The notes under the pieces were generated by a model that saw only the letters and a program-made list of their open reading frames with translations, did no database searches and was not told the origin of the DNA. The translations under genes and the position numbers were made by a program. A stretch of DNA of 62,867 nucleotides, the filler included, from Lenisia limosa (taxonomy: Eukaryota > Protista > Breviatea), in assembly GCA_001655205.1 (NCBI GenBank). It is 18 parts of 18 records of this genome, joined end to end, with 100 filler letters (N's around TTAATTAATTAA, not from the genome) between each part and the next. Parts side by side here need not be neighbours in the genome. Positions count along the whole stretch, not along the records: positions 2,954 to 7,185 come from LPNZ01002920.1; positions 7,286 to 10,361 come from LPNZ01003394.1; positions 10,462 to 13,211 come from LPNZ01006028.1; positions 13,312 to 15,567 come from LPNZ01000584.1; positions 15,668 to 18,454 come from LPNZ01008588.1; positions 18,555 to 21,211 come from LPNZ01000075.1; positions 21,312 to 27,433 come from LPNZ01002899.1; positions 27,534 to 33,052 come from LPNZ01005819.1; 10 more parts are not named here. One strand, 5' to 3'. The first letter of the stretch is position 1. Each line of letters starts with the position of its first letter. Positions 3,096-57,509 of the stretch are shown here, one piece after another.

Positions 3096-5079
3096 GCAAT
3101 TTACACCCCAGACCGGAGAGATGCTCGGCAAGGTCGAGGCTCATTCCGACTCCATTTCAAACATGCAGTACTCCTGGGACGGCCTTTGCATTATCACCGC
3201 TTCCAAGGTGCGGGGGTAGGGCAAACTGTCAAAAGCGACTGGCCTGGGCTTTGTTTTGTTNNNNNNNNNNNNNNNNNNNNNNNNNNNNNNNNNNNNNNNN
3301 NNNNNNNNNNNNNNNNNNNNNNNNNNNNNNNNNNNNNNNNNNNNNNNNNNNNNNNNNNNNNNNNNNNNNNNNNNNNNNNNNNNNNNNNNNNNNNNNNNNN
3401 NNNNNNNNNNNNNNNNNNNNNNNNNNNNNNNNNNNNNNNNNNNNNNNNNNNCCACCATTTCTCCCACCAAGGTTGGGGGATTCTCTGTGTCGTTTCCCTC
3501 CCAGTATATTTCCCGTTTTCACGTGTGGTATCTCAGGGTTTTGTTGCTCTTTTTTTTTCTCCCAATTCAAAAAAATAATATTTCCCCACCCTAGCCTGGG
3601 CTTTATTTGTTTTGTTGGTCTAATAACAGGGTTGATTTTGGACTCTCTTTTTCTCTCATAAGTTTCCCATTTTCACCCCGGGGTTGTTATTGCTTATTTT
3701 TTTGTTGGAGTTTCAGATTATTTGTTTTGATTAGTATCTTCACACCAATGTTCATCGTCGAAGTTTCTTTTATTTCATAAATTTTCCAATTTTACTCCCC
3801 CCCCCCNNNNNNNNNNNNNNNNNNNNNNNNNNNNNNNNNNNNNNNNNNNNNNNNNNNNNNNNNNNNNNNNNNNNNNNNNNNNNNNNNNNNNNNNNNNNNN
3901 NNNNNNNNNNNNNNNNNNNNNNNNNNNACCTCAACCCGTGTCGGCCGCTTTGAGTCCAGATTCTTCCACAAGATCTACACTGTGGGCAAGGCTTGATTGA
4001 ATTGGGTTGATTTTCGTGGGGTTTGGGGTGAAATGGAGTTGATTTTATTGGTTCAACAAGATTTACACTAAGGGTTAGGATTCTTGCACAAGATCTACAC
4101 CGTGAGATTAAATTGGGTTGATTATTCAGCCATTCTCTTTTATATTTTGGTTTTTTGGTTGACATTTTTACTCTTTTCCCCCACCCCCCAACCCTTGTAT
4201 GTTTCGCAAATATTTTGCCAACAGATTCTGGCTTTTTTGGTTAGTGATTGTTTTTCAATTTACGCCACCTCCACCTTGTTTTGTTACATTAAATTTCCTA
4301 TTTACTGTACGCTGGAGTAATGGGATGCGGTGCTGCAGAAGCGATTAGCCTGGGCTTTGATTGTTTTGTTGTTATCAACCCTTGTGTGTATTCAGCCGAG
4401 TTTATTTTGAGCTTCTTTTTTTTTTTCACAATTTAACAGAGTTGATTTGGGTGTTTCTTTCATAAATTTTCCAATTTTACTCCCCCCCCCCCCNNNNNNN
4501 NNNNNNNNNNNNNNNNNNNNNNNNNNNNNNNNNNNNNNNNNNNNNNNNNNNNNNNNNNNNNNNNNNNNNNNNNNNNNNNNNNNNNNNNNNNNNNNNNNNN
4601 NNNNTCGCCTTCGCCCCCGACGGCAAAAGCTTTGTCTCAGGTCCGCTGGGAAATGAGTTCTATTCAACTTGAGGGGGCTGGAATTAGGGCTTCACTTTGG
4701 TTCGAATAATAACTGAAATTGTCGATAAATCCTCGGAAACTTTCGATCCGGTCTTTAGACCGGCGTGAAGCCCTAGTTGGACTGTTTAAAAGGAGAATGA
4801 AAACTGTTCATTGTTAGAAGGAGGGAAATTAATTGCAATTTAACTTGAGGGGATCAATAGAAGCTAGGAGTATAGCTTCACGTAGGTCCTTTGAAGATAG
4901 TTTCGCTCAACCGCCTTTCGTTTCCTTCTTTTTTTTTTAGGACTACTTGCAATTATTTCTTACCCCCCCCCCCCCNNNNNNNNNNNNNNNNNNNNNNNNN
5001 NNNNNNNNNNNNNNNNNNNNNNNNNNNNNNNNNNNNNNNNNNNNNNNNNNNNNNNNNNTATTTCGAGAACAAGCTCTAG
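3096..5079 (+). CDS. EIF3I: Eukaryotic translation initiation factor 3 subunit I (WD40), partial multi-exon
   Basis: Exons read QFTPQTGEMLGKVEAHSDSISNMQYSWDGLCIITASK (3096-3207), TSTRVGRFESRFFHKIYT (about 3929-3981), AFAPDGKSFVSG (about 4604-4639) and YFENKL* (to 5079). These match eIF3i motifs (TTSTRIGKFEARFFH; AFHPDGKSYSSG). Confidence 0.9.
3225..3806 (+). repeat. Intron-3'-end repeat family, copy in eIF3i intron (interrupted by a gap)
   Basis: Contains aaaagcgactggcctgggctttgttttgtt, then ttggagtttcagatta, and ends ttcataaattttccaattttactcccccccccc before an N gap and the next exon. Confidence 0.85.
4307..4493 (+). repeat. Intron-3'-end repeat family, near-complete copy
   Basis: gtacgctggagtaatgggatgcggtgctgcagaagcgattagcctgggctttg...gttatcaacccttgtgtg...aacagagttgatttggg...ttcataaattttccaattttactcccccccccc, followed by a gap and an eIF3i exon. 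Confidence 0.9.
4685..4775. mobile_element. hAT-type MITE (TAGGGCTTCAC TIR family)
   Basis: Termini TAGGGCTTCAC...GTGAAGCCCTA; flanks gctggaat/gttggact give a 6/8 match (degenerate 8-bp TSD). Confidence 0.8.
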
Positions 5080-5465
5080 GTCCTTTCTTACGGTTAACAT
5101 TCAGTCTAAATCCAAAATCCAGAAATGTGTTCCAATATTTTTAATTCTTTGATCCAAAATCCAAATACAAAGATTATGGTTGATTATTCATTCACTTCAC
5201 CACACGAACGAGAACTTTCGTTTGTAATTCAGTCCCAATTGCCACCACTTTGACGCTGACTGCTTTAGCCTTTCTTTAGGTTAACATTCAGTTCTAATTC
5301 TTTTTTCACTTAAAAATGCCACCCCTATTCATATCATATTCCCAGTTACTTTTTCCACGATCAACATTTCTCTTGTCCCTTTTTCACTCATTTCATTTCA
5401 TAAATGATTATGGGAGGTCCAGTGTGATTGATTGAAACCATATTCTTCAGTATTATAAATTTCGC

Positions 5466-6930
5466 CTAGTTGAACCGCAAGAATGAAAGACATCGTGGAG
5501 AATAAATATGAACAACTGAAAAAACGACTTGAGACACTAGACTTAGAGAAGAGAGGGAACCAACCATAAATAAGAAACAGGACCATAATACGCGCTTCAG
5601 CCTTATGACGAGCCATGGTACAATTCCGGCTTGTTTCTTCGGATGAAAGGTGCAAGAATGTAACAGGCCAAGATGGCGTGGCAAGACAGGGTGTTGTTTG
5701 AGGTCTACATCGGTAAAGTAGAAGTTCAAGCAATGTTTGAGAGGGGTTGGACTAAATAAACCACCCTAATCTTAGATGGGCCCAAAAAGGCCTAAATTTG
5801 ACAGCAAAAAAACCAACAGGAGTATGGCGGGCTTTGTATTCAATGCATTTTATCCTTGCCACAAAAAGGCCTACATTTGGCATGCTCTCCACGCGACTAG
5901 CCATCATGTTGAAGACCGTGCCGGTTCGTTGCCAGTTTTGCGCGCGGTACGGAGCTGTGTACTCCGACTGCAGCACTGAGTAGCCGTTGGAGTCATATTG
6001 GATCACTAGATCGTGAGAAAATGCGGCATATTGGATCACTGGTCGTGAGAAAATGTGGCCATTTGGAGGTAGTGATTTATCGAGGATTTATCGAGGTTTC
6101 ACCCCCAGCTCACCGGTGTTAAGCGACAATGTGACCTCGTGCGAAGGCCCCACGCCAGGCGGAAGCGTGAAGCCTGTTTTGATCGTTGTCGGCAGGTTGA
6201 CAACGCCCTGAATGGTCACACACATTACATAGTGGTCATAATCACTACATTATGGTCACAATCACTACATTAGGAGTTTTGGTTACAAAATGTCCATTGA
6301 AATAAAATTTACAATCATTGCACGAAGTCCTAAACACTATGGTTGCATTATAACAAGGGCTTCACTTTGGTTCGAAAAAAGACTAAATTTTCCGATAAAT
6401 CCTCGAAATCTATCGATATTCTGCAGGTATTTTTCGAATGAACCCTAGCTATAACTACAAAAAAAAACAATACAGGCCAACATCAAAATTTCAAGAAAAA
6501 TGAGTCTCAACAAGGTCTTCCCTTCAGTCCGGAAAAGACAGAACTATCCAAAAAATATGAATATCAATGCTTATTGTATTTACCGGACTTTGTTCGGACC
6601 AAAGTGGGACCCCAGTGCAAAACCAATATTGCTAGGATTTCAGATACAGTTGGCCAGGTAAGTGTCTGTGAGAAAATCGGACAAGACTTACCTGGTGAAC
6701 AGGTATCATATCCCTATGTACTAAGTTTCACTCTGTTTTGATGTATAGATGCATCATACATATAGTAGATTATTTCTTCAAAAAAGAACATTGAGAAAAC
6801 TCGTCCTTCATAGCCCCATACAGGTTGTTCGCTGAGATCGATGAGGAGGCAGGGGGGGTAGCACATTGTCTGAAAATGAGAAACAAAAAAACCCGAATTC
6901 AACTCTGTTGGCCAAACATTTAAGAAATCC
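5466..6930 (-). CDS. Unknown multi-exon protein
   Basis: Clean GT-AG exons at about 6112-6208 (GVVNLPTTIKTGFTLPPGVGPSHEVTLSLNT) and 5876-6005 (IQYDSNGYSVLQSEYTAPYRAQNWQRTGTVFNMMASRVESMPN). Other exons are uncertain. Confidence 0.4.
6355..6447. mobile_element. hAT-type MITE copy
   Basis: aagggcttcactttggttcgaaaa...gaatgaacccta; flanks attataac/gctataac (6/8). Confidence 0.75.
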
Positions 6931-7006
6931 ATGTGAATACAAAAGCCCCCCTCCCCTCCATCTACAATCTTGAATTTTCAATTTTAAGAAGATACTTGCA
7001 CAAAAA

Positions 7007-7086
7007 TATTGCTTCACTTCGGTTCGAAAAGACAGTTTTCGAGGATATATCGAGACAGTCTTTTTTCAAACTGAAGTGAAGCCCAA
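7007..7086. mobile_element. hAT-type MITE copy (internally shortened)
   Basis: gcttcacttcggttcgaaaa...ttttcaaactgaagtgaagcccaa. Confidence 0.75.
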
Positions 7087-13052: not shown

Positions 13053-13424
13053 AATATCGTTACATATTGCGAAGATATGCTAGAATCGAGCTTATTTTTT
13101 ACAGTGTAACATCAATTAGGTTGGTCCCCTTTTAAAGCAATATTTTTGCTAAATACGCCCTTTTCATGATCAGTGCAATGTAAGGATTATGCATATAGCA
13201 GATACATATCANNNNNNNNNNNNNNNNNNNNNNNNNNNNNNNNNNNNNNNNNNNNTTAATTAATTAANNNNNNNNNNNNNNNNNNNNNNNNNNNNNNNNN
13301 NNNNNNNNNNNCACCGCCTCCCATCACTCCAGCGTACTTTGCTCCACTATTTACCCATCCCTAATAACCTCTAACATACACACCCACACTATTATATATA
13401 ATCAAAATCCTTACCTCCCCCTAG

Positions 13425-14306
13425 GTTCCTTCTTTCTGACAACACCGCAATTGTGAAGAAGCTGAGGAAGAATGGATTCGAGTACCTAGCGAAGCTCGAT
13501 GACGAGGTACGCGGGCATAGTTCGTTCATTACACTTTACAATTTTCTGTTTTTGTGTTCTTGTCTGGTTTTTGTCTGGTTTCAGCGTTTGTTGCTCGTGT
13601 TTGTTGTTGCTTGTTGTTTTTTTTAAAATAAATTTTTTTGTGTATTTAGAGTTTCAGCTTATTCGATTCGTGATTAGTACATTTATGCTCATATTAACTA
13701 CGCCGAAGTGGGATGCTGCAAAAGCGACTGGCCTGGGCTTTTTTTGTTTTGCTGTTATCAACCCTTGTGTGTTGTCAGCCAAGATTTGGGTTCTTTTTTT
13801 TTGTTTGTGTGTGTGTGTCACAAATTTCGATTTTACCCCCCCCCCCTCAGGTTGACGGAGAAGACGTGGTAGTGAAGGCCATCATTGACGCTGCTCTAGC
13901 TGCCTATCCCGAGGTCTGCCCTGGAAAGTAGTTGCATATTAAGTAATATGCAATAAAATGCTAACCATTTTACTAGGGCTTCAACGATTCAAAAAAAGAC
14001 TGATTTCCCGAATCTTCGAAACTATCGATATGTGAAATAAAGCTTCATCTGATTATCCAGAGAGGCCTCCCCGCGACCCCAACCAACACCCCACCCTCTG
14101 ACGAGAAGGAATGGCGAAAATGGGCGGCCGCGTATCTTCGTGCTTCCGAGGTGGCAATATTGACCCGGGCCACAGCCGCTCTTGAGACCCCCCGTGAGGC
14201 CAAACGGATGAAAACTTGCCATGGCAATTGTGATCATCATGTAGATGAGAAGTGTGACGATGGGGAGGGCTGTGAGAAGGAATGTAGTGACAGATGTTGT
14301 CATTAG
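13425..14306 (+). CDS. 3' part of a protein with a possible Rubisco-LSMT substrate-binding (SET methyltransferase-associated) end and a Cys/His-rich tail
   Basis: Exons FLLSDNTAIVKKLRKNGFEYLAKLDDE | VDGEDVVVKAIIDAALAAYPE | KEWRKWAAAYLRASEVAILTRATAAL...KTCHGNCDHHVDEKCDDGEGCEKECSDRCCH*. The exon structure is clear; the family call rests on a weak AxxxRxxExxIL motif. Confidence 0.45.
13646..13850 (+). repeat. Intron-3'-end repeat family copy ending at the acceptor AG (13850)
   Basis: ttagagtttcagcttattcgattcgtgattag...gtgggatgctgcaaaagcgactggcctgggc...gttatcaacccttgtgtgttgtcagcc...ttttaccccccccccctcag|GTTGAC exon. Confidence 0.9.
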
Positions 14307-15049: not shown

Positions 15050-15505
15050 CATTCAAGAAACAAGAGCATCCACCCACGCCGCTAGGTAGGGCTTGAGTCA
15101 GCATCTTAAGACCATCAGGATTGGGACCACTTCCCTGCGCTTGCTGGGGAAATGAGATTGCGTGCATTAAAACTCTTGAATTACATAGTATATGTAAATC
15201 ATATGAAATAGAGATGAGAAATGGAAAAACAAAACAAAAAAAACAAGGTTGTATCCGCCGAAGCCGTCAACACCATAATCCTTAGAAGAGATATTGAATA
15301 ACTGTAATAATCCACCAAACATTTGCCAAACAACTCTTTTCACACAGCTTTCTGTAAATATGATATGTAAATCACACAACTTTGTCATATAATTGAATAA
15401 AGACCCCCCCACCCCCCACGGTGTATGAGTGAAGCTCCTTTTTGGTCATGAGAGTCTTCCAGAATTCCGACATTTGGACCAGCGACATGTACTCCACTCT
15501 CTGGA
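15050..15505 (-). CDS. Unknown protein, exon fragments
   Basis: Exons bounded by ...cccag acceptors and gtggg donors (QAQGSGPNPDGLKMLTQALPSG; a second exon at about 15420-15505). Confidence 0.35.
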
Positions 15506-16097
15506 GGGGTAAAACGCGAAATTAAGGAAACAAAACTATTGACCAAAATCAACCCGTTGAAATGGTTNNNNNNNNNNNNNNNNNNNNNNNNNNNNNNNNN
15601 NNNNNNNNNNNTTAATTAATTAANNNNNNNNNNNNNNNNNNNNNNNNNNNNNNNNNNNNNNNNNNNNAATTTTCAAAATTTGAAGTGGAATATATTGGAA
15701 CAAGAACCCCTTTTCAGACACTTTATAATTTTGTCAAAATACAAATAGCACGGAGCCCTGGTTTATTCTCTTCCATTTCACAAGTTACAACTCAATAGCA
15801 TCCGCGGAATTCTCTTCCCCACCCACCACAATATTCTTCATCGAAATTCTCCTATTGTACTTGGCTGGAGTGGTGGGATGCGGTGCTGCAGAAGCGGCTG
15901 GCCCGGGCTTTGTTTGTTTTGTAGTTATCAACCCTAGTGTGTTGTTGTCAGCCAACAGAGTTGNNNNNNNNNNNNNNNNNNNNNNNNNNNNNNNNNNNNN
16001 NNNNNNNNNNNNNNNNNNNNNNNNNNNNNNNNNNNNNNNNNNNNNNNNNNNNNNNNNNNNNNNNNNNNNNNNNNNNNNNNNNNNNNNNNNNNNNNNN

Positions 16098-18314: not shown

Positions 18315-19689
18315 TAGGGAGAAGCGGATGATTTGTTGTTCCAGGAAGGTTTTTTTTTGTTGTTGCTTTGGAGGTCAGTTATACCTCATGTTCCAATTCT
18401 ACTGCCCTTACCCCACCTGACAGTGGGGTTTTGTTTCATACATTTTCCAATTTTNNNNNNNNNNNNNNNNNNNNNNNNNNNNNNNNNNNNNNNNNNNNTT
18501 AATTAATTAANNNNNNNNNNNNNNNNNNNNNNNNNNNNNNNNNNNNNNNNNNNNCATATCTTGGGCATATTATTTATTATTGCCGGAGGAATATGGGTGG
18601 GCTGGGTGGAGAACGAGGAGAGGGATATTGAAGGAGAGTTATATACGATGCTGCAAATCATGTTTATAAAGGGGGAGGGTTGGTGGTATCTATGGGATTG
18701 GTAGTCCCATCACTCAGCTCACATTTTTAGTATTGCGTCCCCGTTGGAGTTCGGAGTGTTCCTGGGGTACGACTCCAAAACGCAGACTCAGCGCTCAGAC
18801 TAAACTTAAGGAGCGTTTTTGTTTTGTTTTGATACGTCCTGATTTTCTTTTATGTTTTGTTTATGTATGTTTAGTTGGTTGGCTTAGACTGGGCTTTCAC
18901 CTTTTCATTCATCACTTTGGTTGCTGTAAAATATGGAATGGGGGGTGGGGTGGTAAAACGAGAGACAACGAAATGAATTATCCGTTTGAAAGCCCACAAA
19001 CTGAATACCTTCGAAAAAAAACAGTAGTTGAGACCAATTTGAAGGCGTCCAGGAGTTTTGAGTTTGAAAAACATTGCAACCGCTCCGGTCACCAAGTAAT
19101 CTAATGGGTATTCTGTAATTCGCTCGACGATTTTGTACATTATTAACCCTAATTGAAGATCAAAGATCAGTCTGATCTACATACTACATGTATTATTTCC
19201 TTATATGGCATAGTATGACACAACAGGACCACAGGAGCACAACAAGAAGACGAGGATCATTATTCGAGGCATAATGGCAACAAAGAGGTGGTACTTTGTC
19301 AAAACTTCATAACCTACCTTATAAGGGAAATACGGATTATATTAGTTCTGAAAGAAGATTCAGCAAGCCTCAGTCCATCAGGTTACAAAAATCAATAGTT
19401 AAATAATTTAACGTTAATATAATATCGTTTTGTTTCCGTATTTAAGGCCCCACTACTGTGTTATGTTACCTTAAATAAGATTATTTACATTGCATTTGTT
19501 ACATTTTGCCAAATCGGGATTACCATACATAGCAATTCCCTATTTGGTAAGTTTGATCTTTCTTTTATCTTTTCACTGAAACTTTTATCTTTCCAGCTGT
19601 CAATTTCAAATAACTTGAACTGAACTTTAGTGAATTTTACCTTAGTGATTTTATCCACCCCCCTTCAAAAACCCTTTACATACCTTACA

Positions 19690-27543: not shown

Positions 27544-30500
27544 GTGCTTCCAGGAGCAACATTCCACGCCTCGCCTGTGGTGTACGACGTCAACGGAGAC
27601 GGTGTAATGGAGACGGTGGTGGTCACACACGACGGCTCGGTTCTGTCTCTAACGTGGGGGAGGGCTGTGCTATATTCGAAATATAGTGTATTAAATGTAG
27701 GGCTTCACCCCATACACATACATATGATAAACAATAAAGAAAATCACGTTCCTAGAAATGCTGGGCAAGTTCTCAAGGAGTACACAATGAAAATCCCGCC
27801 TCTCCGTGTCGCCATGGATTGGTACGTAAAACAACAGGAAAAGAGCACGAACGTCCATTCCCCCCAGGAAGCCCCAGTTGAAAATGGTTTGAGATTTCCG
27901 TGATTTGGAGTTCAGACTAATATTTTCAATAATCTCTTACTGATTGTTTTTTATGTTTGAGTGATGGGATGAGGTGCTGCAGAAACGGCTGGCCTGGGCT
28001 TTGTTTGGAGTGATGAGATACAGTGTTGNNNNNNNNNNNNNNNNNNNNNNNNNNNNNNNNNNNNNNNNNNNNNNNNNNNNNNNNNNNNNNNNNNNNNNNN
28101 NNNNNNNNNNNNNNNNNNNNNNNNNNNAATTTTCCAATACACCCCTCTCATTCTTTCAGCCAGTCCAGGCTCCCGTAAACTAATGTCTGTTAATGACCAA
28201 AAGAAAGGTGGGCAGAAGGTCTTCCTTTCCTCTTTTCTTTTTCTCTCATTTCTCAAACAACAAAATAAACTCATTATCCTGTACTACGGTGCATCGACTT
28301 GGGATTCTTGTGATACAGTTGGAGTTCAAACCGAAGAAATTTTTGGGATTCCCAAATAATACAAGGGAATCCCAAGTCGATGCGCCGCAGTGTAGTAACA
28401 AAGATTATGTACAGCCAAAGCTCCAGGCATCATTCAAAACTACCGGACACATCAAAACTCCCGGACAGCTTGAGTTTTCCATTTAAAATCATCATCAACC
28501 CTATTTCCCTTTTGTTTTCGAAAGTATTTTCAATCTTAATCAAAGGATGAAACTCCTATTTCATATATTGTTGGGTCAAAACCAAATTAAGAGCCTAAGC
28601 TCTGTGGTTATGGCCCAAAGACTGTCAAAAACACAAAAAAACTGTAATAAATAGCCACATATGATATACAAGAAATAAATGGCAACTATCCGGGAAAGTT
28701 TACCCTTGCAGACAGTGCTATTTTGAGCATTTTTCTCTCTCTATGTATCTGTCGAAGCAGTTTTAAAAAAACACTAACATTGGCCTCTACAAAGTGTCAA
28801 CTTCAAGCTATCCGGGAGTTTTGAGGTGTCCGGTGAATTTTGGATTATGTCCGGAGCTTTGAGGACCCGTATAATAAGTATTATTAGACCAGGTACAGAA
28901 ATATATTGCTCAGTCAATAACTATTACTTTCCAGTTACGCTCGGGTAAGATCCCTTTTGTCCTTTGACGAAGCCAGTTTTGGGAACTTCATTGACCTCTT
29001 TAGGGGGAGGGCTGTTCAATAGCATTCAAGGAAGGCTGACCGAGGAAGCAAAAGAAAGTCTCGAGGTTTGTTTTTTTTTTTGAGCGGGGGGGCATAGTAC
29101 ATAAATATTTTGACCGATTTGCTCTGTGATTTCCCACGGAAATTAGGTCAAGACTTATCCCGGTCACTGTATGTAGATACATCCCCATACTACTATACTC
29201 TTGCATTCCCCTTTGGAATAACATTCCTGCGTTTACCTCCCCCCCCCCCCNNNNNNNNNNNNNNNNNNNNNNNNNNNNNNNNNNNNNNNNNNNNNNNNNN
29301 NNNNNNNNNNNNNNNNNNNNNNNNNNNNNNNNNNNNNNNNNNNNNNNNNNNNNNNNNNNNNNNNNNNNNNNNNCCTGATGATTTCACTGCGACTTTGGGT
29401 GCCCCGGAAGAGGACCCCTTTTTCTCGCGTTCTTATATCAAGTAGGGGGATATTACTTGAATCAAATAATATAGTAAATTATGTATTATTTATATCACAC
29501 TGTTTTTTATCATAGCTATACATATGATATAATAATATGATTTTAGTATTATATCATAGTATTTATGTAAACATAGTTATATGATGTAGTATAGTATCAT
29601 ATTTCATCAGGTTGATGAAGGCAATGTATAAATAAAAAACAGTTATGTGTAGGAGGAGGGGGGGATTAATTGTCGCTTCCGTGGTAATTATTTTTCGACA
29701 ATAATTTACTCGTATTTGTGTTCAGCGGAGCTAAAGCATCACTTCGGTTCAAAAAAGTCCGGTAAAATATTGATAGTTTTCAAGAATTTATCCAATTTAG
29801 TCTTTTTTTTTTTTCTCGAACGGAATTGAAGCCCTATGTCGAGCCCACTACGCGATAAAATGCAAATTATGTCGACCCTTATCTTACTTCCTTCAGTTAC
29901 ATCAAGAGCTTTCCTTTCCACCTCCAGCCTCCTCACCCTTACCCGGAAATTGCCAACGGTATGAGGGTAAAGAGACTCAGGGCCAGACCAGGATACTTAA
30001 GTCGGATTTTTGGGCCTTAAATCGGATTTTGGTCCGGGCCAGGTAGGAGTACAGCTTCCTAATCCATGTTCATACCCCCCTCTTTTTTTTTCATTCATTT
30101 CTACACTTATCTGACACACTAGGTCTTAATGTGGACAAGTTCCTGGCCGATCACCTCTGGGTAGACAGCCACGTTATTGCCACGCCAATTCTTGCTGACA
30201 TTGATGGCGATGGTGACTCGGAGCTGATTGTCCCCGTTACCTACTATTTTGACTTGTTTGGGGGAGGGGGGGTAGTGCTCATTTATATTTTGACTTCAAT
30301 ACTGGGAGGCACGCAGAAAGCTGTGCACAGAGTTGTAAAGCAAATGACTGGGGGAATTAATATTATTATACTATAATTCAATATCTCTGATAAGCGTGAT
30401 GGTGTGGGCAGCCATTGGTACATATTTTGACTTTTTGGTATCTGGGTTAACCCCTAAAAGTACCTAGGGTTTCACTTTAGTTCAAAAAAAGACTAAATTT

Positions 30501-31429: not shown

Positions 31430-31512
31430 GACAATTTGGCCGAGTTGGTCTAAGGCGTCACGTTAAGGTCGTGATCTCTCCGGAGGCGTGAGTTCGAATC
31501 TCACAGTTGTCA
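31430..31512 (+). tRNA. tRNA-Leu (AAG), intronless
   Basis: Acceptor stem GACAATT/AGTTGTC plus discriminator A; D arm TGGCCGAGTTGGTCTAAGGC; anticodon arm TCACG-TTAAGGT-CGTGA (AAG); long variable arm; T arm GTGAG-TTCGAAT-CTCAC; oligo-T Pol III terminator immediately downstream. Confidence 0.96.
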
Positions 31513-41408: not shown

Positions 41409-42500
41409 CCACCCCGTCTGACTCCACTGCTGATCACTTGAGAGACAAACTCAAATCTGAGAAGGTTGGGGAAACTCAAGTTTGCTAATGTCAAAAGAAA
41501 GAAACAAAAACCTGAGATTTTATCCCATATCACCTTTACACGTGGTTTTTGTGAACACCTCGGCCAGATTGTCTTAATTTTCCGATATAATGCATGCATA
41601 GTTATCTTTTCTTTCATCTTTGCTGTAACTTGTTTTTTTTGAGTTTTAGATTATTCGGTTCGTGATTAGCACCTTTACGCCAATATTTTTTCACCAACAT
41701 TTCTTTCGTTTAACTCCCGCAACATAGTTGATTCTTGGTTTAATTTTATTTTCATAATCCTATTTTGCAGGAGGACAAGAAGAAGGCCGAGGATCAGAAG
41801 AAGGAAGAAGCGGATGAAAAAACTGCAGACGACAAAATGAAGGCGAGACAGGAGCGATTTGCGTGGGGGGGGGGGGNNNNNNNNNNNNNNNNNNNNNNNN
41901 NNNNNNNNNNNNNNNNNNNNNNNNNNNNNNNNNNNNNNNNNNTGATGATGTTGACAGCTTCAGACAAAACCCTTTCACTCACCCTCACAGCAAGCCCACA
42001 AAACCCGCGCCAAGCACTAAAGCGAAATCATCAAAAACGACAGACAAGCCCGTAATGCCCTCGACAAAGGCCTCAGAGAAGCCCGCGCCAGCTTCGAAGT
42101 CCAGCGACAAGAAGGACGACAAGAAGGATGAAAAGAAGGACGACAAGAAGGATGATGAGAAGGAGAAGCGCGAGACTCGGAGCTCGTCAGCAGACCGACG
42201 GGCCAAAGAGGATGAAAAGAAGACCGATCGCAGCCGAAGGTGAGGGCAAAGAGGTAACAGAAAGTATTGTGTGCTGTGAAGAGGATCAAGGCAGCGGGGA
42301 ATTCGTCTGATGCTAACCATGTTGTAGGTCTCAAGAACGAACTTCTCAACCGAGGGGGCGCGGAAGGTAAGCCTCTTCACCTCTGTCAACATGGATTTCC
42401 AGATGATCGGGGGAATTTTGACCCTTCAGCACATCCACGGCCAGTTCGTCTAGAAGTGAGCGCGAAACAAGGAGGTCCCGCCATAATTGATTTATTGATG
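41409..42500 (+). CDS. Lys/Asp/Glu/Arg-rich low-complexity C-terminus of an unknown protein
   Basis: Exons EDKKKAEDQKKEEADEK..RQERFA, DDVDSFRQNPF...DKKDDKKDEKKDDKK...TDRSRR, SQERTSQPRGRG and RSERETRRSRHN*. Confidence 0.6.
41640..41770 (+). repeat. Intron-3'-end repeat family copy ending at the acceptor AG (41770)
   Basis: gagttttagattattcggttcgtgattagcacctttacgccaatatt...atagttgattcttgg...ttcataatcctattttgcag. Confidence 0.75.
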
Positions 42501-43126: not shown

Positions 43127-44142
43127 ATGGGAGAATCACTCGATAACGAAAAGAAACAGAAGATTCCTTCTTTTGCCAAGGTTAGTTCGAATAATCTTTC
43201 TCTGAAGCTTCTCGATTTTGTTCACGTTGCAGAACCTCCAAATGGAGCTTTCTTGGGGAATCGACGAGGGCAAGTCTGTTGATCTTGATGCCTCCGCTGT
43301 TATCACCGAGAAGGACGGTGACATCAAGGGATGTGCTTCTTACCAGTCTACTCGCATCGGCAACTACATCCAGCACATGGGTGACAACGTTTGCGGGTTT
43401 CCTTTTAATTGTTTTTATTGCCCGCCTTTGATTTTGTTTGACCGCTTTTAGACTAGCGGAGCTGGTGAAGGTCCCGATGAAATCATTCGGTAAGCATTTG
43501 GGTAGTATGTCCTATGTACAGCTGGATTTTTCGGTCTAATTTTTCTGTAGCTTTTGGATGGACAAAATTCCCAAGAATATCTACTACATGTTCGGTGTTG
43601 TTGCTGTCTATAGCTCTGATAGCGACTTTGCTGATGTCAATGATATCGGAGTTTCTTTCTCCATCTTCAAGGAAGAGAAGCCTCCTAGCCCGTAAGCTGA
43701 TCCCAAATTAGAAGGTTGATTTACGTTGTTAAGCTGGGCTAAGCTCTTTGGCAAGTGCTGCGCCTCTATGCCTTCTGTCGACCTTCCCTCAGTTGATATG
43801 CCCTCTGTTGACCTTCCCGATATTGACATGCCCGACGTTGACATGCCGAGTATGCTTCCCCTATTTTCTTTACTTGATCCGAGTCTCTGAGTCATTCCGC
43901 GGAGTTGTTCTCACCACTTTACATTTGTAGACATGAATCCCATGCAACTCTGGGAGAAGATCAAGCCCCATTTCACCTTCAAATCTCCTTGCAAGGGCGC
44001 CCATACTTCAACTGTTGTTGCCTGCATTTACCGTGACGACGATGACTGGTACATGAACCGTATGACCGTCAAGGGTGAGGCCAGGAAGGGAACCGACTAC
44101 GACAAGCTCAAGCCTCAGTTCGACGAGATCCGCAAGGAGTAG
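43127..44142 (+). CDS. Complete 6-exon TerD-family (CABP1/TerD stress) protein with an internal repeat insertion
   Basis: LQMELSWGIDEGKSVDLDASAV...IQHMGDNTSGAGEGPDEIIRFWMDKIPKNIYYMFGVVAVYS are TerD hallmarks (LxW, DLDASA, HxGDNxxGxGEGxDExI). The C-terminus TVVACIYRDDDDWYM ends in TAG at 44142, and all intron phases join. Confidence 0.88.
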
Positions 44143-44568
44143 GCTTTTTTTCTTTCTTTCTCCTCTAACTCTTTTGCAGTATCGACTAAGCACACTCTGC
44201 TGACGTTTGTACAATAGGTTTTCGCCACAGTTTTGATTTATATTGTTTTGGATATTTATTACCAGGGAAAGATAAGCTTTTTGAGGGCTAAGTATATCTT
44301 GGATGCATTTCAATCCCAATTCCTTTTTGTTATCGAAATCAAATTGTGTGACGAAGTTCTCCCCACGTTTTTTTTTTTCGACGCTTCGAATGTAGAGAGA
44401 GAAGGCCACATAAAATCATAAAAGAGTATTATTTATTTATTGAAATATTAGTTGAACAAGATAACTAGATAAGCAGACAACAAACGATATACAAATTGCC
44501 CTACTCTGAGTAAGGCTAAGGCGCTCTGCTCTGGTCTTGCCTAGTCTCTAGTAGCAGCCCTTAGCACA

Positions 44569-47149: not shown

Positions 47150-47550
47150 CCCCCCTCCCGGACCGTTTCGACTCGGCTGTTTCACCATGAGATGCCAATT
47201 CACGCCTTTTGCGCAACCTTTCCTGAATCATTCGGCGGCTGCGGGGGGGATAAAACTGGAAAATATATGAAACAAAAAAGCCCAAAATCAACTCTGTTGG
47301 TAAAACGAAAGAAATTTCGATGAAGAATAGTGGCATATGGGGGTAGGGGGGGGGAGAAAGGAGAGGTATATATATCTTTCTCTCCACACATAAAGGTGAG
47401 AAAAACAAAGCCCCGCTTATCCCCCCAACTTCATGGTATGACAGAATGTTTCAAACTGGGCCGCCTGAGACTCGACAATTAATCCTCTCGCTACGCCACA
47501 ATCTACGCCACGCTGCGAAATATCGCGTAATGTCGTCGGCGGTAGGGGGN
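47150..47550 (-). CDS. Unknown protein, exon fragments
   Basis: Exon RRMIQERLRKRRELASHGETAESKRS follows the acceptor ttttatcccccccgcag. Confidence 0.35.
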
Positions 47551-49493: not shown

Positions 49494-50770
49494 CTATTCC
49501 CGGATCTTGCGCATGCGCTCAATACCCATTTCGTCCATTTTTTCGCACCATGCCGCCCCGGCCTGGGCTCTCAGACGAACCACATCATCGACGTCCTGGC
49601 CACGGGCGCCTGGAGGAGGTGAATTTCCAAATACGGAAGGTGGAGGGAGTGGAGGTGGCGTTTTAAATAGGGAACAAAAAAAAATCAACAACAGAAAAAT
49701 AGACAAAAAACAAAAAAATTGAAATTAACTTCTAACCCATACCGAAAGTGAGGTCCAGGGTAATAGTCTCGTCATCACGCTTGAGAACAACTTCCACAAC
49801 TTCTCCTGGGAAGGCCTCAGATATGACCCTGTTTTGTTAGTATCCCCAACCACACTTCTTTGACAATAAGAGATCAATATATTCAAAGTAAACACACCAC
49901 TTTTTAATTGTTTCCCTAGATTTCCCTTCTCTTGTTATAAAACACTTTTTGACAATAAAAGAGAAATAATTTCAAACACTTGTAGATTGTTCACCCCCCC
50001 CCCCAAGGAGTGTGGGCGCGGAAGTATGGTAATTTGTTTCTGGCATCCCTATGTGTTTGTTTGTTTCCCTAGATTTCTAATGTATATTATTTCTCTTTTT
50101 TTTCAAAAAAAGAAAAAAGCCACCCACTTGTTGACATCGGTCGGCACGTTGGTAGGCCAGCCATCGAAGGAAATCAAGACATCTCCAGCCTCGAGCCCTG
50201 CAAGCATAGCTGGTCCGTCTCTCTTCATCAGCTCAACTTCAACTCCAACCTGCGGGGAGGGGAGTAAATTTGGAAAATTTATGAAACAAAAAAAGCCCAA
50301 ACAACAAAACAAAGCCCAGGGCAGTCGCTTCTGCAGCACTGCATCCCATCACTCCAGCGAGGCCGGGAGAGATAGAGAGTCATATCACCCCTATCAAAAA
50401 TATAAATGCAACAAACTACGATTTCCCCCGTCCCTACGGGGGGTCCTTCGGAAAGACGTGCACCGAGCTGCGGCTTCATGCCACGGAGCTTCTCACGGGC
50501 AGCGAGAGCCTCGGGAGAGGGGTTCTAGGGGGGGGGGGTAAAACGAAGGAAATTTCGATGAAGAATTTTGGCGTAAAGGGGCCAATTACGAACCGAATAA
50601 TCTGAAACTCCAAACAAACAAAAAAACAAAAATCAAATAGTAAAATTGGAAAATTTATGAAACCAAAAGCCCAAATAAAACTCCCCCCCTCCCCACCTCT
50701 TCATCCTCGTCTTCATCCTCACGCATGGCCTTCGGTGCAGCGTTTTTCTTCTTTTCGGCCTGACGGTCCT
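49494..50770 (-). CDS. PDZ-domain protein, 3' part
   Basis: KPQLGARLSEGPP|VGVEVELMKRDGPAMLAGLEAGDVLISFDGWPTNVPTDVNK|VISEAFPGEVVEVVLKRDDETITLDLTF|GARGQD...IRE* (GPAxxAGLxxGDVI PDZ motif). Confidence 0.85.
50250..50360 (-). repeat. Intron-3'-end repeat family copy ending at the acceptor AG
   Basis: Minus strand: cgctggagtgatgggatgcagtgctgcagaagcgactgccctgggctttgttttgttgtttgggc...ttcataaattttccaaatttactcccctccccgcag|GTTGGA. Confidence 0.9.
50525..50682 (-). repeat. Intron-3'-end repeat family copy making up nearly the whole intron
   Basis: Minus strand: tttgggcttttggtttcataaattttccaattttact...ttggagtttcagattattcggttcgtaattggcccctttacgccaaaattcttcatcgaaatttccttcgttttacccccccccctag|AAC. Confidence 0.88.
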
Positions 50771-50987
50771 ACAAAATCAGCAACGCCAATGTATCAAAGC
50801 GGATAGGGGAAGTGAAACAGCGATCTGACCGAAGCCGTGCACAATTTGATATTTCATACTATGTAGATAATATGTATAGCTATTCTANNNNNNNNNNNNN
50901 NNNNNNNNNNNNNNNNNNNNNNNNNNNNNNNTTAATTAATTAANNNNNNNNNNNNNNNNNNNNNNNNNNNNNNNNNNNNNNNNNNNN

Positions 50988-52215
50988 AAGTGGATGCGCC
51001 GCCGGAACACACTGTTATCGAGGAGGGCGTTGCCACGTCGGATGTCAAGCTACAAATCTCCGCCACCGCCGACACCCCGGACTGGGACATTTCGGACAAT
51101 GTCGAGGCCATTCGCTTCAAGTCGACGTTCATGTACCAATCGCGCGCTTTCACGTTCACTTTGCGTAATCCCAGCAAGGCCAAGCTCAACTTCAACTGGC
51201 GTCTTGTTAACTCGGCCCGACTCAGCTCTGACTCGGGTGGGCGGGTGATATTCCGCTGGATCTCTGTGATCCTAGTTTCAATAGAGACTTTACCGCAAAA
51301 TAATGTTCACCATTGTGATGAGTGATAAGTAGGGCTTCACTTCGGTTCAAAAAAGGCTGTATATTATCGATATTTTTCGAGGATTTATCAAGAAATTCAG
51401 TCTTTTTTCGAATCGTAGTGAAGCCCAATTGATAAGTAATTTTATTGCGGGTTGAATAATTATAAAACCTTTTTCTTGATCCTTGTGGTGTTCCACTCAA
51501 ATAAGAATAGAAACAATTCCCTAACCCGTACCGCAGAAGACTCAGATGACGATCTCGACTGTCCGTTCGCGGTCGAGCCCGAAAACGGCGAGGTGGCGCC
51601 TGGCGAAAGTGCCAATATCATTGTCCGCTTTGCTCCCGACGACGCTGGACTTTTCACGTACAATTTGAGGGTATTTGGGCAGTACCGTGTATTTATGGGA
51701 ACTAATTGCACAACGTGCTAAATATTATTATTCCTCATGAGTCACCGCACCCACATAAATAGAGTTGTTTTTTTCGCTATTCCTTGTTTTGTTGTTATCA
51801 GCCCTTGTGTGTTGTCCGCCAACAAAGTTGATTTTGGGCTTTTTTATTTCATAAATTTCCTTCGTTTCACCCCCCCTCCCCAGGGAGAAATCCAAGGCCT
51901 GGCCTCCAACGTGGCCCCCCCGAATCTCCCCGTAGTTGGCAAGGCCCTACGCCCGGTGTGTCACCTGGCTCTTGACGAGTCCGACTACCTCATATCCGGC
52001 CGACGACCGCCAAACCGCCCGCTTCCTTCCGGCGCAACAGTGGACGCTGCCACCACACGTGTGATTGAGTTTGAAAGCTGTGGCGTCCGCGTGAGAACTA
52101 CGCGACGATTCGCCCTTGTCAACCCAACCAACACGCCTTATAGCTTCATCTGGGAGGAGCTGGACGATGGCAGTTTATCATCCGAAACGTCGGCTTTCCG
52201 CTGCCTTTCTCGGTG
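50988..52215 (+). CDS. HYDIN: Hydin (central-pair projection protein), internal fragment
   Basis: IRFKSTFMYQSRAFTFTLRNPSKAKLNFNW..CPFAVEPENGEVAPGESANIIVRFAP..VVGKALRPVCHLALDESDYL.GRR..TRVIEFESCGVRVRTTRRFALVNPTNTPYSFIW match C-terminal Hydin ASH/Ig-like repeats. Confidence 0.9.
51330..51428. mobile_element. hAT-type MITE, full-length copy in a Hydin intron
   Basis: TAGGGCTTCACTTCGGTTCAAAA...TTTTCGAATCGTAGTGAAGCCCAA; flanks gtgataag/ttgataag (7/8 TSD). Confidence 0.88.
51760..51883 (+). repeat. Intron-3'-end repeat family copy ending at the acceptor AG (51883)
   Basis: ttgttttgttgttatcagcccttgtgtgttgtccgccaacaaagttgattttgggc...ttcataaatttccttcgtttcacccccctccccag|GGAGAA. Confidence 0.9.
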
Positions 52216-52414: not shown

Positions 52415-55400
52415 GGGAGATGGTGAAGACACAGTGACAGAAATTGCCGATGTGTCAACCTTGATTTGCGTGCAGCGGTCAGTGGTCGGGTCACGAGCGT
52501 ATCCGCGATGACAAACGCAGTCGTCAACGGAGGTCGAGCCGACATCGAGGGTTCTTGTGAAAGAGGGGCAAGGAACACATTCGGTCCGGGTTTGGAATGG
52601 TTGGTAGGACCTGTGAAGTGAAACGATATGTGAGTAGAGATGAGAAATAAAACAAGGTTGTTTCTGGCTATGGCTCAATATATTCTACCTATTTCCAATG
52701 AGCCAGATGAGACAGCTAGGTGATATTATAGATATGAGACATAAAACAAGGTTGTATCAGGTATGGCTCAAAATTGGCTCAACATTCTATTTCAATATTT
52801 ACTATTGCATTTTGTATTTGATGATATTATAGATGAGATGAGAAACAAGGTTGTATCTGACCAAAGCCGTCNNNNNNNNNNNNNNNNNNNNNNNNNNNNN
52901 NNNNNNNNNNNNNNNNNNNNNNNNNNNNNNNNNNNNNNNNNNNNNNNNNNNNNNNNNNNNNNNNNNNNNNNNNNNNNNNNNNNNNNNNNNNNNNNNNNNN
53001 NNNNNNNNTTCGGTTCCAAAAAAACTGATGTATCGATAAATCCCCAATAAATATCGATAATTCTCAAGACTTTTGGAACTGAAAGTAAAGATCTAGTTCC
53101 AAGTGAGTCTCTCTATGGTTTCATACCCAATTTCGCAAAGTGTGCATTCCTTCACTCCAATTGCGAGCCTAAAGCGGTCAGCCCTGAGATAATAATGGTA
53201 ATATGTTGATGGTATCCCTATGTATTCTTATGGTTCCCTAGATTTATTTAAGATATTTTCATGCCCCCCCCCCCCCNNNNNNNNNNNNNNNNNNNNNNNN
53301 NNNNNNNNNNNNNNNNNNNNNNNNNNNNNNNNNNNNNNNNNNNNNNNNNNNNNNNNNNNNNNNNNNNNNNNNNNNNNNNNNNNNNNNNNGCGTTGTCTCC
53401 GCATTCGATTTCTGAGAAAGTCAAGAGAGCGAGAGAGAGACAGCAAAATAAAACACCTACCAGAACAAGTGAAATCGGGCCATGTAGTGTCCGGGTTGCA
53501 CGTGACCAGCTCGTCAGTTTCAGGGACATAAAGGTCCTCGTCACAAACAATTGTGCATGCTGGTTGGAACGTCACGGGGTCTTCCGAGCAGTCTAAGTGG
53601 CCACCACCGATTACGATTGTTTCTGAAAGCTGCTGGCATGTCTCCCCTAGGAACGTAAATTTTGTGCATGTATATACATGTATGTATATATGTCATAATC
53701 ATATGATATGTATATATATATATATTACTGTGACCGCGATAGATAAGCCCTAACACGAATGACTGAAGATAAAGCTCAATATCTTTGTCAGGATTTATCA
53801 CTGTCAGTTAATATCTGGCCGAGGCCGACCACACCATCACGCTTATAAGAGAAATATTTTGATAGTTTTAGGCAACCACCTTTCCATCACGATCTTAGAT
53901 AGATAATTTATTAAAAGATGACGACGCCTCTCACCCCCGCAGTAGAAATCAGGTGCTCCCGAGGGAATCATTTCAGCGTCCAGACAGCCTTGGTTGCAGG
54001 TCTGTACGTCGGGTAGCGAGGTCATTGACTGTGTGTTGTTATTTTGCAGTGTGGTCACAATGATGTTGAATCTGGGAAAATATCAAGGATTTATGCATAA
54101 TTCCCCAATGAAAGTGAAGAAAAATATGAGCTGTTTTCCCAATAAAATTAAGGTATATACTTTTTCAAAACANNNNNNNNNNNNNNNNNNNNNNNNNNNN
54201 NNNNNNNNNNNNNNNNNNNNNNNNNNNNNNNNNNNNNNNNNNNNNNNNNNNNNNNNNNNNNNNNNNNNNNNNNNNNNNCGTCGAAATCAAGGCAAACGGC
54301 CTCAACCGTGGAGTCAAATGTACGCTGTGTGGGTGAGGCAATAGTTAAGGAAAGAGGAAATAGTAGGGCTTGAAGAAAAAACAGAGGAAAAGCACATAGG
54401 AAGAAGACTCAAAAAAAAGTACAAACCGTGCATTCATCAAGGCTGAGGTCAGCAACAACACCAGAAGTGACTAGTCTGTACTGTCAATGGTGTGTGTAGG
54501 AAAAGATATTTTTTTTAATATTATTTTTGTTTTGTGTAAAAAAAGGGGTTATCGCCGAAGCTTTCCAGTATTCAAGTTCCCCCCCCCCCTCCGCCCACCA
54601 TTATNNNNNNNNNNNNNNNNNNNNNNNNNNNNNNNNNNNNNNNNNNNNNNNNNNNNNNNNNNNNNNNNNNNNNNNNNNNNNNNNNNNNNNNNNNNNNNNN
54701 NNNNNNNNNNNNNNNNNNNNNNNNNNNNNNNNNNNNNNNNNNNNNNNNNNNNNNNNNNNNNNNNNNNNNNNNNNNNNNNNNNNNNNNNNNNNNNNNNNNN
54801 NAGCATACATAGTACCCCCTTATATGATCATCAATATATGCATCCAGGATAAGTCTTGACCGAGTTGCTGATAACCCAATTAAAATTGGTCAAGACTTTT
54901 CCCGGTCACTGTCTCATACCCCCCATTTCCTGATACCCCCCCATTTCCTAGGATGATACCCCCTACTTTGCACGTAGGGACTTGCCGATGAGTCCGCCAG
55001 TAAATGCGGACGAAAAGGAGCCGTGCATAACCAGACGGCTGTTCACAATCGAAACTGAACGCAATGTTACCTGAGGGGGAGGAGGTAAAGCAAAGGAAAT
55101 TTCGAATACTGCCGTAAAGGTGGTGAAACTGGATAATTTATGAAACAAAAAAGCCCCAATCAACTCTGTTGGCTGACAACACAGGGGATGAAATTTCGCT
55201 GAAAGCCTAGCCCCTTACAGTTGCATCCGTAGCATTTCCTAGGATGATACCACAATTTTCCGGGCGTTCACAAGGAGACACAATGTCATCAAATGTAACG
55301 TTTTCGATGGTGAAGGTGCCGTTGATCTACAAAGTGTAAAAAACGTAATAGTGTTTTGAGCTATAAACAGTCTTTGTGCAGTTAACCCTAATCTTTATGG

Positions 55401-57509
55401 CCCTGGTTTCAATGAGCCTAAACTCTTTATGATTCTAGTTTCAATAGAGACTTTCCTACAGGTATATGAAGGTGGATAAAACGGCCACATGTGCAGTGGA
55501 CGGGGTAACCCAAGGAAAATCGTTCAAGACTTATCCCGGTCACTGTACATATCATATAGTGTATTATATACACATATATCATATATACATGTATGCACAT
55601 ATGCTATACTACGCTATATGCCCGGCTTACAGAAGAGTAAATATTGCCGCGAAGACCCGTGATAGTGTTGCCGTTTCCTAGGATAAGAATCGAACCGGCC
55701 TGGAAAGTGAAACATAAAACGGAAAGTGAAACATAATAATGTTACTCAACCCTAGATTTTAAAAAAAACTAAAAAAATAGAATAGAAAAAATAATGGGAC
55801 GGAGGATTGGAAAAGATATATGAAAAAAGCTCAAAATCAACACTGCTGGCTAACACATAAGGAAATGGAAATGAACACCCGGAAAATGAAAAACCCATAA
55901 CGACCAAAAAAACAAAACAAAACAAAAGCCCACCCTACCACAGACTCATGCCAGCGGGGCTGCGCATCAGAACAGTCAATATCGTTTTTAATTTCGTACA
56001 CGCCGGCACGTGGCCTTCCGAGCTGCTCACAGCTAAATACGGAAAATTCACCGCTTAATCCGGACCATGCAGCTAAGCGAAAGAGCGATGACGTGGCTTC
56101 CCAATCAATTCCGTAAACCGCGTGGTCGAAAGGCGCCTCGAAGGCAAGGAAACTTGATCTTAAAGATCCCGCAGTGGTGGTGTTAATTTGGAGAGGTGAG
56201 TGGTCGACAAGGACAACTTCTCTGTTGGTTCCAAAGACACGGACTGACCCGGACATGGCAGTAGCCATTGGGCTCGGTGTGATGATTTTGACAGCTCCGG
56301 AGGAACTATCCACAGTTCGGATAATGACGTCGTTGAAGGTAACGGACGCCAAGTTTACGGATTGCGCAACGCTGGCGAGTTCACCGAGACAAGCCGATCC
56401 GATGGTGGTTCCGAGGACGGTGCGGGTCATGGTTAGAGAAGCGGAAGAGCCAGTAACGCTTCCGAAGGCGCCGACGGCAACACAGGCGTTGTCAAGGTCA
56501 CCCAGTTGATTGCTGCCTTCAAGTGACACGTCATCTAGAATGGCCGTGAAGGTGACGTTGAGCGTGGAGAACATTACTGCAGCGGACACGTCAGAGGAAA
56601 TCGCTACATTGACCAGAATGTGGTCAAGGACCAGAGAATCAATGGTTGCGGACCGGACCAGTCCCGATGCGGTGGTTGCGGAAATTTGGCCTTGGACGCG
56701 AACGTTTTGAANNNNNNNNNNNNNNNNNNNNNNNNNNNNNNNNNNNNNNNNNNNNNNNNNNNNNNNNNNNNNNNNNNNNNNNNNNNNNNNNNNNNNNNNN
56801 NNNNNNNNNNNNNNNNGACTGGGTAAGTGAATCGAACATTCCAGAAGCTGAGTCAGCCGTGATATCCAGGGTGATGTCGGCCTATGATCGTAAAAACTAT
56901 CAGACAAAATCGATCAGATGTAAAAGTGGAAAATAAAAAAAGGGTAACATTTCAAAAATGATAAACATTACCCCCCACTTCAACAACATTGAAAGCGACG
57001 GCGGCAGTAATAGCGATTCCAGCAGCCACCCCGCCGCGACCCTCCAAAACAAATCCGCAGTTGTAGATCGAAAGATCAAGTCCCATGAGGTCCCGCGCGA
57101 CCGTAGCGGCCTCGTTGGTTTTTTGCGTGGTTTTCAGGGAGAGGGTTGAGCTGGGGTGTGAGAAGAGAACTGCATCCATATAAGGCAAGTGTCAGTACTT
57201 GCCATGAGGGGAAAGTGATATTTATGGAAAGTAACTAATAAACAATAAGTCTCAGATTTCTTTTTGTCAAGACCACAAGGTCAGAAAGAAAAGAATAAAA
57301 AAACAAAAGAAAAAAACAAAACAAATAAAAAAACCCTAAACACAACCCCCCCAACCCCTCAAGAAGCAGGGTGCCTCCGGGGGCCTCTGTGACCACAAAA
57401 GCAGAGAGATCGGAAGAAGCGATCATAGAGATCGTGGAGTTTTTGAGTGTTGCCGAGCCAGTGAGGCTTTGGAAGAGCCCAGGACAGGTTGGGGCACTGC
57501 ATTTGATTT
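52415..57509 (-). CDS. Large surface protein: GLUG-like/beta-helical repeats, sushi-like module, ephrin-receptor-like Cys repeat, Ser/Thr stalk (internal fragment)
   Basis: GVYEIKNDIDCS, GNGNTITGL and FTGGLIG resemble GLUG-repeat proteins; CTIVCDEDLYVPETDELVTCNPDTTWPDFTC is CCP/sushi-like; SYQPFQTRTECVPCPSFTRTLDVGSTSVDDCVC is an Ephrin_rec_like (GCC2_GCC3) pattern. Confidence 0.7.
52630..52871 (-). repeat. Dispersed repeat family E (ataagcgtgatggtgtggacggcttcggccagatacaaccttgttttatttctcat), three partial copies here
   Basis: Same sequence at about 2985-3050 (+), 15205-15280 (-), 30390-30415 (+), 31905-31960 (+), 38010-38030 (-), 47121-47140 (+) and 53826-53850 (-). Confidence 0.75.
55071..55190 (-). 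repeat. Intron-3'-end repeat family copy ending at the acceptor AG
   Basis: Minus strand: tgtgttgtcagccaacagagttgattggggc...ttcataaattatccagtttcacc...tttacggcagtattcgaaatttcctttgctttacctcctccccctcag|GTAACA. Confidence 0.85.

Follow-up and report, generated by a model that had tools for sequence, protein, structure and literature searches.

A short dispersed repeat occupies the 3' ends of spliceosomal introns in 11 inferred host genes within a 62,867-nucleotide stretch of the Lenisia limosa genome (GCA_001655205.1), hereafter the window. This cassette is predicted from its sequence to supply the branch point and the C-rich tract of the host intron. A first-pass annotation had noticed the repeat and proposed either a 5'-truncating, poly(C)-tailed or poly(C)-targeted retroelement or the recombinational spread of a branch-point module between introns; we partly confirmed that observation and found partial support for its interpretation. 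The explanation we favor, with a probability of about one half, is a short non-autonomous retroelement primed at the acceptor C-tract, with its orientation filtered by splicing. By analogy, the repeat would work like known (C)n-targeted non-autonomous retroelements.

The window is intron-rich eukaryotic DNA consisting of 18 scaffolds (1.3-6.3 kb), 17 N44-TTAATTAATTAA-N44 linkers and 24 additional gaps; because the linkers join separate scaffolds, adjoining ones may not be genomic neighbors. Pfam matches were obtained for eIF3i, EH, AAA, FG-GAP, myosin, PDZ, HYDIN/CFAP65 and an ephrin-receptor-like repeat, so the gene names EIF3I, PDZ, HYDIN/CFAP65 and FG-GAP stand, whereas the name GLUG has no Pfam match. 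In homology searches the HYDIN-like exon matched itself alone, and it had no match among longer proteins. Repeats were searched by self-BLAST and with hidden Markov models (HMMs) of five modules (E<=0.05), with five locally shuffled windows as the control. The HMMs gave 34 matches, mostly to seed copies and about nine to non-seed sequence, spanning 1,367 of 58,495 called bases, and none in the shuffled windows. Every copy listed by the first-pass annotation was recovered, and the copies form 17 clusters on eight scaffolds (two clusters by eye or at weak E). Splice motifs and reading frame together allowed us to place 42 introns, 9 repeat-bearing and 33 plain; donors 43161 and 22147 were misplaced and were excluded from the donor and branch-point statistics, leaving 40 donors. 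The exon chains around all nine fully bounded cassette introns are free of stops in translation; the four chains in which stops remained contain no cassette intron. The repeat is real. For comparison we used DNA contigs of a public run (X1), which contain 0.90 of the window's words and are possibly the source of the assembly, and poly(A) RNA contigs (X2) from the same study. X2 contigs over cassette pieces were not counted as proof of transcription, because DNA may occur in that library.

The cassette comprises unit A (~90 nt) and, separable from it, unit B-C-D (~165 nt), in several orders, and not the single linear 250-300 bp consensus first described. In the window the orders are A-B-C, A-D, D-A and C-D-A, and X1 contigs from other loci contain D-to-B, D-to-C, A-to-B, A-to-D and D-to-A joints. 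A full B-C-D copy is laid out as GT, branch point, C-run and AG, yet it lies within a host intron. Unit A has no GT start, and only its last ~25 nt are common with D. The 3' end is fixed and 5' truncation is frequent: about half of the window copies are truncated, starting at C, D or the end of A. Head-to-tail or partial tandem copies appear in the window chains and in the D-to-B and D-to-C joints. Inner units stop at a branch-point-like motif plus a few C, without an AG of their own, and older C-tracts lie upstream of several junctions (4178, 15820, 47346, 18415); these are the expected remnants of repeated insertion at the acceptor tract, and (C)n insertion would leave such tracts together with the C-run at the 3' end.

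The reference copy at 4307 is the last part of the eIF3i intron that begins at 3982. Its D module closes with TTTTAC, the predicted branch point, and a C-run, and is interrupted by a gap; the fragment at 4175-4225 lies upstream in the same intron. The region 3225-3806, previously taken as one copy, likely spans two introns, because about 49 eIF3i codons (residues 208-258) are absent and a donor follows 3471. The chain at 3591-3806 likely belongs to the intron beginning at 3472. Because 10 of the 24 internal gaps follow a C- or G-run, assembly artefacts were suspected as the source of the mosaics; single X1 contigs span 4130-4336 and 50639-50887 without difference, which removes this suspicion for these stretches only.

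Cassettes end at acceptors. Across the window, 10 of the 11 copies with a visible acceptor ended within 25 nt of the AG. The statement that the C-tail runs directly into the AG in most uncut copies held for seven of the 11 (13850, 15501, 47239, 50250, 50525, 51883, 55071); three are degenerate yet within 25 nt (28159, 41770 and 6870, the last with an inferred acceptor), and one lies 107 nt away. A control family resembling miniature inverted-repeat transposable elements (MITEs) lies 58 to ~400 nt from acceptors in all five placed copies (two acceptors by eye). Both cassette introns of the PDZ gene are skipped in an RNA contig (X2 record 9) and are spliced at the AG after the C-run. At other loci, X1 contigs leaving the end of D continue with a consensus C-run and then AG (221 contigs, agreement 0.38), and at the test stretch around the 4307 copy 86 contigs start with AG at 4491 (agreement 0.36).

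We then compared the signals inside these introns with those of plain introns. Of 31 plain introns, 25 have the motif yTnAy no more than 14 nt from the end, against 27% after shuffling; the motif is therefore the likely branch point. Six introns end in a cassette; in these the motif falls inside the cassette, 12-15 nt from the end, compared with a median of ~9 nt in plain introns (p=0.006). Cassette introns are also richer in C before the AG than plain introns (p=0.002), and measure 172-344 nt (n=9) versus a median near 90 nt for the other 33.

The 5' edge of B-C-D is sharp. Summed X1 contig depth, which is not a copy number and depends on the nearness of the test copy to the family, is 278 at 4286-4298 and 165,000-365,000 from 4312, and the ramp within 30 nt equals the expectation for 31-letter words at a fixed edge. 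The X1 contigs listed begin at 4307-4308, the start of B. At the second test copy, 116 contigs leave the start of B with a GTA consensus and mixed T-rich sequence beyond, and five of the eight B-bearing window copies start within 7 nt of the same G. The earlier view that only the 3' portion is shared while 5' ends vary is contradicted by this boundary at G4307.

Recombinational spread is weakened by the sharp 5' end and by the absence of a fall-off in depth from D to B. The same evidence bears on copying by DNA repair, in which breaks at G/C-tracts would be repaired when a strand invades the C-tract of a different intron, whose 3' end would be copied with neither RNA nor an element enzyme, abundant ends winning. 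Repair would suit the 3-5 nt that junctions often share with the older end (TACGC at 13700, CACC at 55118, CCC at 4190 and 55190), the mosaic chains in any order, the local duplications elsewhere (an exon end at 3968, 4037 and 4089; by eye) and the fact that no enzyme was found. It predicts, however, a steady loss of depth away from the acceptor, while depth over B and C matches that over D, and it predicts no common stop, while the B edge is confined to a few bases in most B-bearing copies. We consider this account doubtful and rank it below the RNA-based route that the same edge brings up.

The edge coincides with a donor-like GTACGC, which serves as a placed donor at 13507, one of 40, and scores above 99.6% of 4,329 inner-intron 6-mers. 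Because of this sharp, donor-like 5' end, a full copy resembles a complete intron nested at a host acceptor. Both unit ends could then be splicing products, the 3' one carrying TTTTAC, C-run and AG at 12-15 nt. It is possible, though unlikely, that B-C-D RNA released by the spliceosome, from the internal GTACGC donor and the host acceptor or from a master intron, is reverse-transcribed into other acceptors, with the C-run and AG pairing at the target. The repeat would be an acceptor-homing mobile intron, and in thousands of old introns the branch point and acceptor tract would have been exchanged for new ones, in some of them repeatedly; we hold this only tentatively. T-runs rule out polymerase III, as such a route would have it, and some joints run from branch point through a short tail to GT (4301-4312; 50359 to 50537; 4486 to 4308), like processed intron circles, described as rare RNAs in which a trimmed lariat tail is joined to the 5' GT; the cited passages show no genomic copies of them (PMC10996645). 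Successive insertion accounts for these joints equally well, however. Donors are loose, GTACGC scores 5.0, under the median donor, and the donor test was post hoc on one boundary, with T frequently before the G. Furthermore, unit A has no such start, internal donor use was seen in no RNA, and none of the nine complete cassette introns begins at B.

Among the earlier proposals, a poly(C) retroelement gives the best fit to the fixed 3' end, the truncation, the older ends and the chains, and the retroelement primed at the acceptor C-tract remains our preferred reading. Target-primed reverse transcription would place the main unit B-C-D, or the second unit A with its similar last ~25 nt, into the C-tract right before the acceptor AG. 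A nick in the G-rich bottom strand would prime on the C-tail of the element RNA, the reverse transcriptase being Penelope-like by analogy, and copying would reach the fixed RNA start or halt early. The previous branch point, with some of the previous C-tract, would be displaced upstream and the TTTTAC and C-run of the element would form the new 3' end, so that the intron would still splice; repeated rounds would build head-to-tail chains. The template RNA likely comes from polymerase II transcripts, because runs of 4 to 11 T, found in all four copies examined, would stop polymerase III. We infer the bottom-strand priming, the RNA template, the displacement of the old end and the selection on strand; placement, strand, fixed ends, truncation, chains and AG splicing in two introns were observed directly.

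Orientation requires a separate step. Sixteen of the 17 clusters are sense to the host gene (p=0.0003), and not all of them as first stated, since a 25-nt antisense start of B lies at 13312-13337 in a plus-strand intron. The suggestion that poly(C) targeting would by itself fix orientation fails: G-runs follow donors as often as C-runs precede acceptors, so a second filter is needed. On the reverse strand, yTnAy is followed by AG within 16 nt in the four copies tested, a would-be cryptic acceptor, and antisense insertions at donor G-runs would therefore likely be purged by selection. Donor G content is no higher in cassette introns (p=0.44). Donors throughout the window follow a loose GT-D-D-G consensus (G at +5 in 34 of 40), frequently with a G-run after it; pairing of donor G-run and acceptor C-run as a general design found no support, the two being uncorrelated (rho 0.18-0.20, p 0.2-0.3).

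Several points weigh against a target-primed retroelement. Its model does not predict a fixed 5' end at a donor motif. We found no match to a reverse transcriptase, transposase or partner element in 146 + 97 window frames, and neither an empty site nor a target duplication beyond the C-run could be demonstrated. A unit is present at six of 10 C-rich acceptors versus an antisense copy at none of 10 G-rich donors (p=0.011), a test that is partly circular because the element may bring its own C-run; in plain introns the last 15 nt contain a median of 4 C, and the C-tract is possibly element-borne. The cassette branch point is a prediction that uses motif and distance. Only one of the three largest X1 loose-end groups begins with AG, the others (100 and 60 contigs) beginning with AC and TC, and the X1 and X2 evidence comes from one run pair of one study.

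Structural searches bear on the remaining element classes. No real terminal repeats were found, the longest inverted match being 7 bp and non-terminal (4307 copy, 7 nt from its start), and none of 10 pieces showed a stable fold (z -0.87 to +1.48). Rfam returned no family on three copies at E<=10, and no tRNA, 7SL or 5S head; its scans showed no ribozyme family of the retrozyme kind, although minimal hammerheads could escape them. With this lack of a head, the T-runs and a tail of C rather than A, the repeat is not a polymerase III short interspersed nuclear element. A tRNA-Cys-like head of B, seen by eye, was rejected for want of Rfam support and a B box.

A small DNA transposon or an introner whose sub-terminal repeats are very short, and which survives mainly where it remakes an acceptor, would explain why both ends of B-C-D are fixed and would make use of the 7-bp inverted match; nested and merged introner elements are described in Micromonas (cited passages of PMC3879977). 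The 7-bp match is nevertheless possible by chance in that search space, and neither a terminal repeat nor a fixed target duplication is present. About half of the copies lose the 5' side only, and the MITE-like family of the window is mid-intron, with none of five placed copies within 50 nt of an acceptor. Such an origin is thus quite improbable; other causes take the probability that these four readings leave. In the cited passages of PMC11282704, introners give rise to entire new introns, most of which carry terminal inverted repeats and target-site duplications or a stable fold. The repeat is similarly high-copy, sense, intron-shaped and nesting, but it retains the host donor and 5' part of the intron, does not make up the whole intron, and has no terminal inverted repeat, target-site duplication or fold that we could find. 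A minority of stand-alone whole-intron copies may exist at other loci. Stwintrons, whose inner intron when removed restores the outer one, are also intron-shaped units nested at another intron's splice signal and spreading as similar copies (cited passages of PMC12403724). In contrast, removal of B-C-D would leave a host end without AG: at 4307, 15857 and 50361 the bases that precede the GT end in neither A nor AG.

The family extends well beyond the window. The two test stretches drew 8,537 and 6,484 X1 contigs, and summed depth was 19-29 on single-copy DNA versus 200,000-495,000 on B, C, D and the end of A. From this depth, and with B occurring about once per 8 kb of the window, thousands of copies are likely genome-wide. 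Two exact 20-21 nt repeat motifs had 0 and 0 matches in metagenome contigs. C-rich acceptors at 12689, 29236, 734 and 4963 have no HMM match, and the sequence ahead of them looks like decayed ends of A or D; the family may be both more ancient and more widespread than our count indicates.

The retroelement behavior proposed here is not without precedent, contrary to the earlier impression. The Penelope-like Chlamys-9_cRei and Chlamys-N4_cRei of Chlamydomonas reinhardtii target (C)n and are 5'-truncated, with a median of 128 bp and all copies intronic (PMC9977147), and non-autonomous Chlamys elements form multicopy head-to-tail arrays (PMC8557442), according to the cited passages. These elements share with the repeat the short truncated intronic insertions and the chains, and probably the (C)n target and a target duplication hidden by the microsatellite. 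An acceptor tie, a strand bias or a supplied branch point is not reported in those passages, and "splice" has no match in four of five supplementary files of PMC9977147. The repeat differs in ending at the AG, in being sense in 16 of 17 clusters and in starting at a donor motif, and it has no known partner with a reverse transcriptase and GIY-YIG domain. (C)n-targeted, truncated, intronic, head-to-tail insertion is thus already known, and regeneration of the branch point and acceptor tract is apparently the new part. SIRE of Trypanosoma cruzi, a short non-autonomous retroelement, reportedly supplies a new trans-splicing acceptor. It differs in acting on trans-splicing, in belonging to a tyrosine-recombinase family and in its length of about 430 bp. 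In the cited passages of PMC4006747, PMC5994713, PMC2323293 and PMC6681497, SIRE appears only as a non-autonomous VIPER derivative or is absent. Open full-text literature, a scope excluding subscription journals, Repbase and Dfam, yielded no element that rebuilds both of these signals at scale in introns already present. The repeat may be mentioned in the description of the genome itself.

One family at the acceptor side of nine of 42 placed introns, with splicing left intact, amounts to a safe-haven strategy, at a site avoided by most mobile DNA; transposons in mammals are depleted beside acceptors (cited passages of PMC3088655). Branch points would be turned over across the genome by a repeat, with the predicted branch point moved from ~9 to ~14 nt from the end and intron length roughly doubled. 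The fixed GT start makes it testable whether excised spliceosomal intron RNA is a transposition intermediate. If intron RNA does home to acceptors, a copy that landed in an exonic C-run ahead of an AG would give rise to an intron de novo, and the repeat would be genomic evidence for RNA-mediated intron transposition.

Table 1 Cassette copies and other mapped features of the window.
Feature	Position	Strand	Context	Basis
B 3' half, gap-cut	3230..3260	+	eIF3i intron beginning 3208	HMM
Chain: B-end, old C/D end (3625-3678), A (3702-3769), D (3768-3797), C-run	3591..3806	+		HMM
Older branch-point-like end and C-tract, then C-module fragment	4175..4225	+		By eye; HMM E 1.0
Reference full-length B-C-D: GTACGC donor-like start, G/C-rich B, T-rich C, D	4307..4493	+		HMM, sharp depth rise at 4307
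C-end/D fragment	6870..6912	-	~12 nt before inferred acceptor; host gene model weak	HMM
B 5' end, antisense	13312..13337	-	+ strand host intron; cut by scaffold start	E 0.14, by eye
A 5' part fused to B, C, diverged D, C-run, AG	13640..13850	+	Intron 13507-13850	HMM
Probable C-end and A-end, short C-run, AG	15501..15567	-		By eye; no HMM match
A-end, B, C, gap-cut; older C-tract precedes	15829..15963	+		HMM
D; older branch point, C-tract, CAG precede	18426..18454	+	Cut at scaffold end	HMM
Diverged A start, B, gap, D end 21 nt before AG	27905..28159	+	FG-GAP gene intron 27887-28159	HMM, Pfam
A, then degenerate C-end/D without C-run	41632..41770	+	Intron 41465-41770	HMM
Older C-tract, A-end, C-end, D, C-run, AG	47239..47337	-	Intron 47429-47239	HMM
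B, D (C deleted), C-run, AG	50250..50361	-	PDZ gene intron 50437-50250	HMM, Pfam, RNA contig
D right after donor G-run, then A, C-run, AG	50525..50683	-	PDZ gene intron 50696-50525	HMM, RNA contig
C and D/A-end hybrid, C-run, AG	51785..51883	+	HYDIN/CFAP65-like gene intron 51671-51883	HMM, Pfam
C, D, A-end, C-run, AG	55071..55190	-	Intron 55299-55071	HMM
Diverged C-end/D	55807..55862	-	107 nt upstream of acceptor 55700; sole non-terminal sense copy	HMM
PDZ gene, four exons in one RNA contig	49742..50770	-	Exons 50697-50770, 50436-50524, 50127-50247, 49742-49827	X2 record 9
MITE-like family, ~100 nt, inverted ends	4681, 6350, 7009, 13971, 14711, 17315, 25011, 29730, 30461, 32798, 45642, 51326, 53009		Mostly mid-intron

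Two host introns show further features. At 47293-47239 (-), a CAG lies 7 nt past the inner A-end branch motif and is a possible alternative acceptor; its use would add 54 in-frame exon bases. The last ~15 nt of an eIF3i exon (3968, +) recur twice in the next intron (4037, 4089), once followed by GT, and are a local duplication across the donor.

Three other repeat families were observed. Family E (50003-50097 and 53191-53276, both +; summed X1 depth ~25,000) lies near the donor end of minus-strand introns; its copy at 53191 closes with a C-run that is the G-run of the host intron, and joints in X1 contigs from other loci put the family next to the ends of A and D. Family E may be a donor-side mirror of the cassette. 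Family F is T-rich (2982, 15209, 30384, 31901, 47120, 52634-52871, 53806) and mostly sense to the host intron, with some copies 20-50 nt from an acceptor; it was rejected as a relative of B-C, as 323 and 197 of 1000 shuffles score as well. Family G is a ~60-nt hairpin repeat with a common tail (29109, 45870, 54844, 55500). The sole ARAGORN match is a tRNA-Leu(AAG) gene at 31430-31512 (+). A compact gene at 43127-44200 (+), with introns of 60-80 nt and no repeats, had no Pfam match on single frames and, by eye, is presumably TerD-like.

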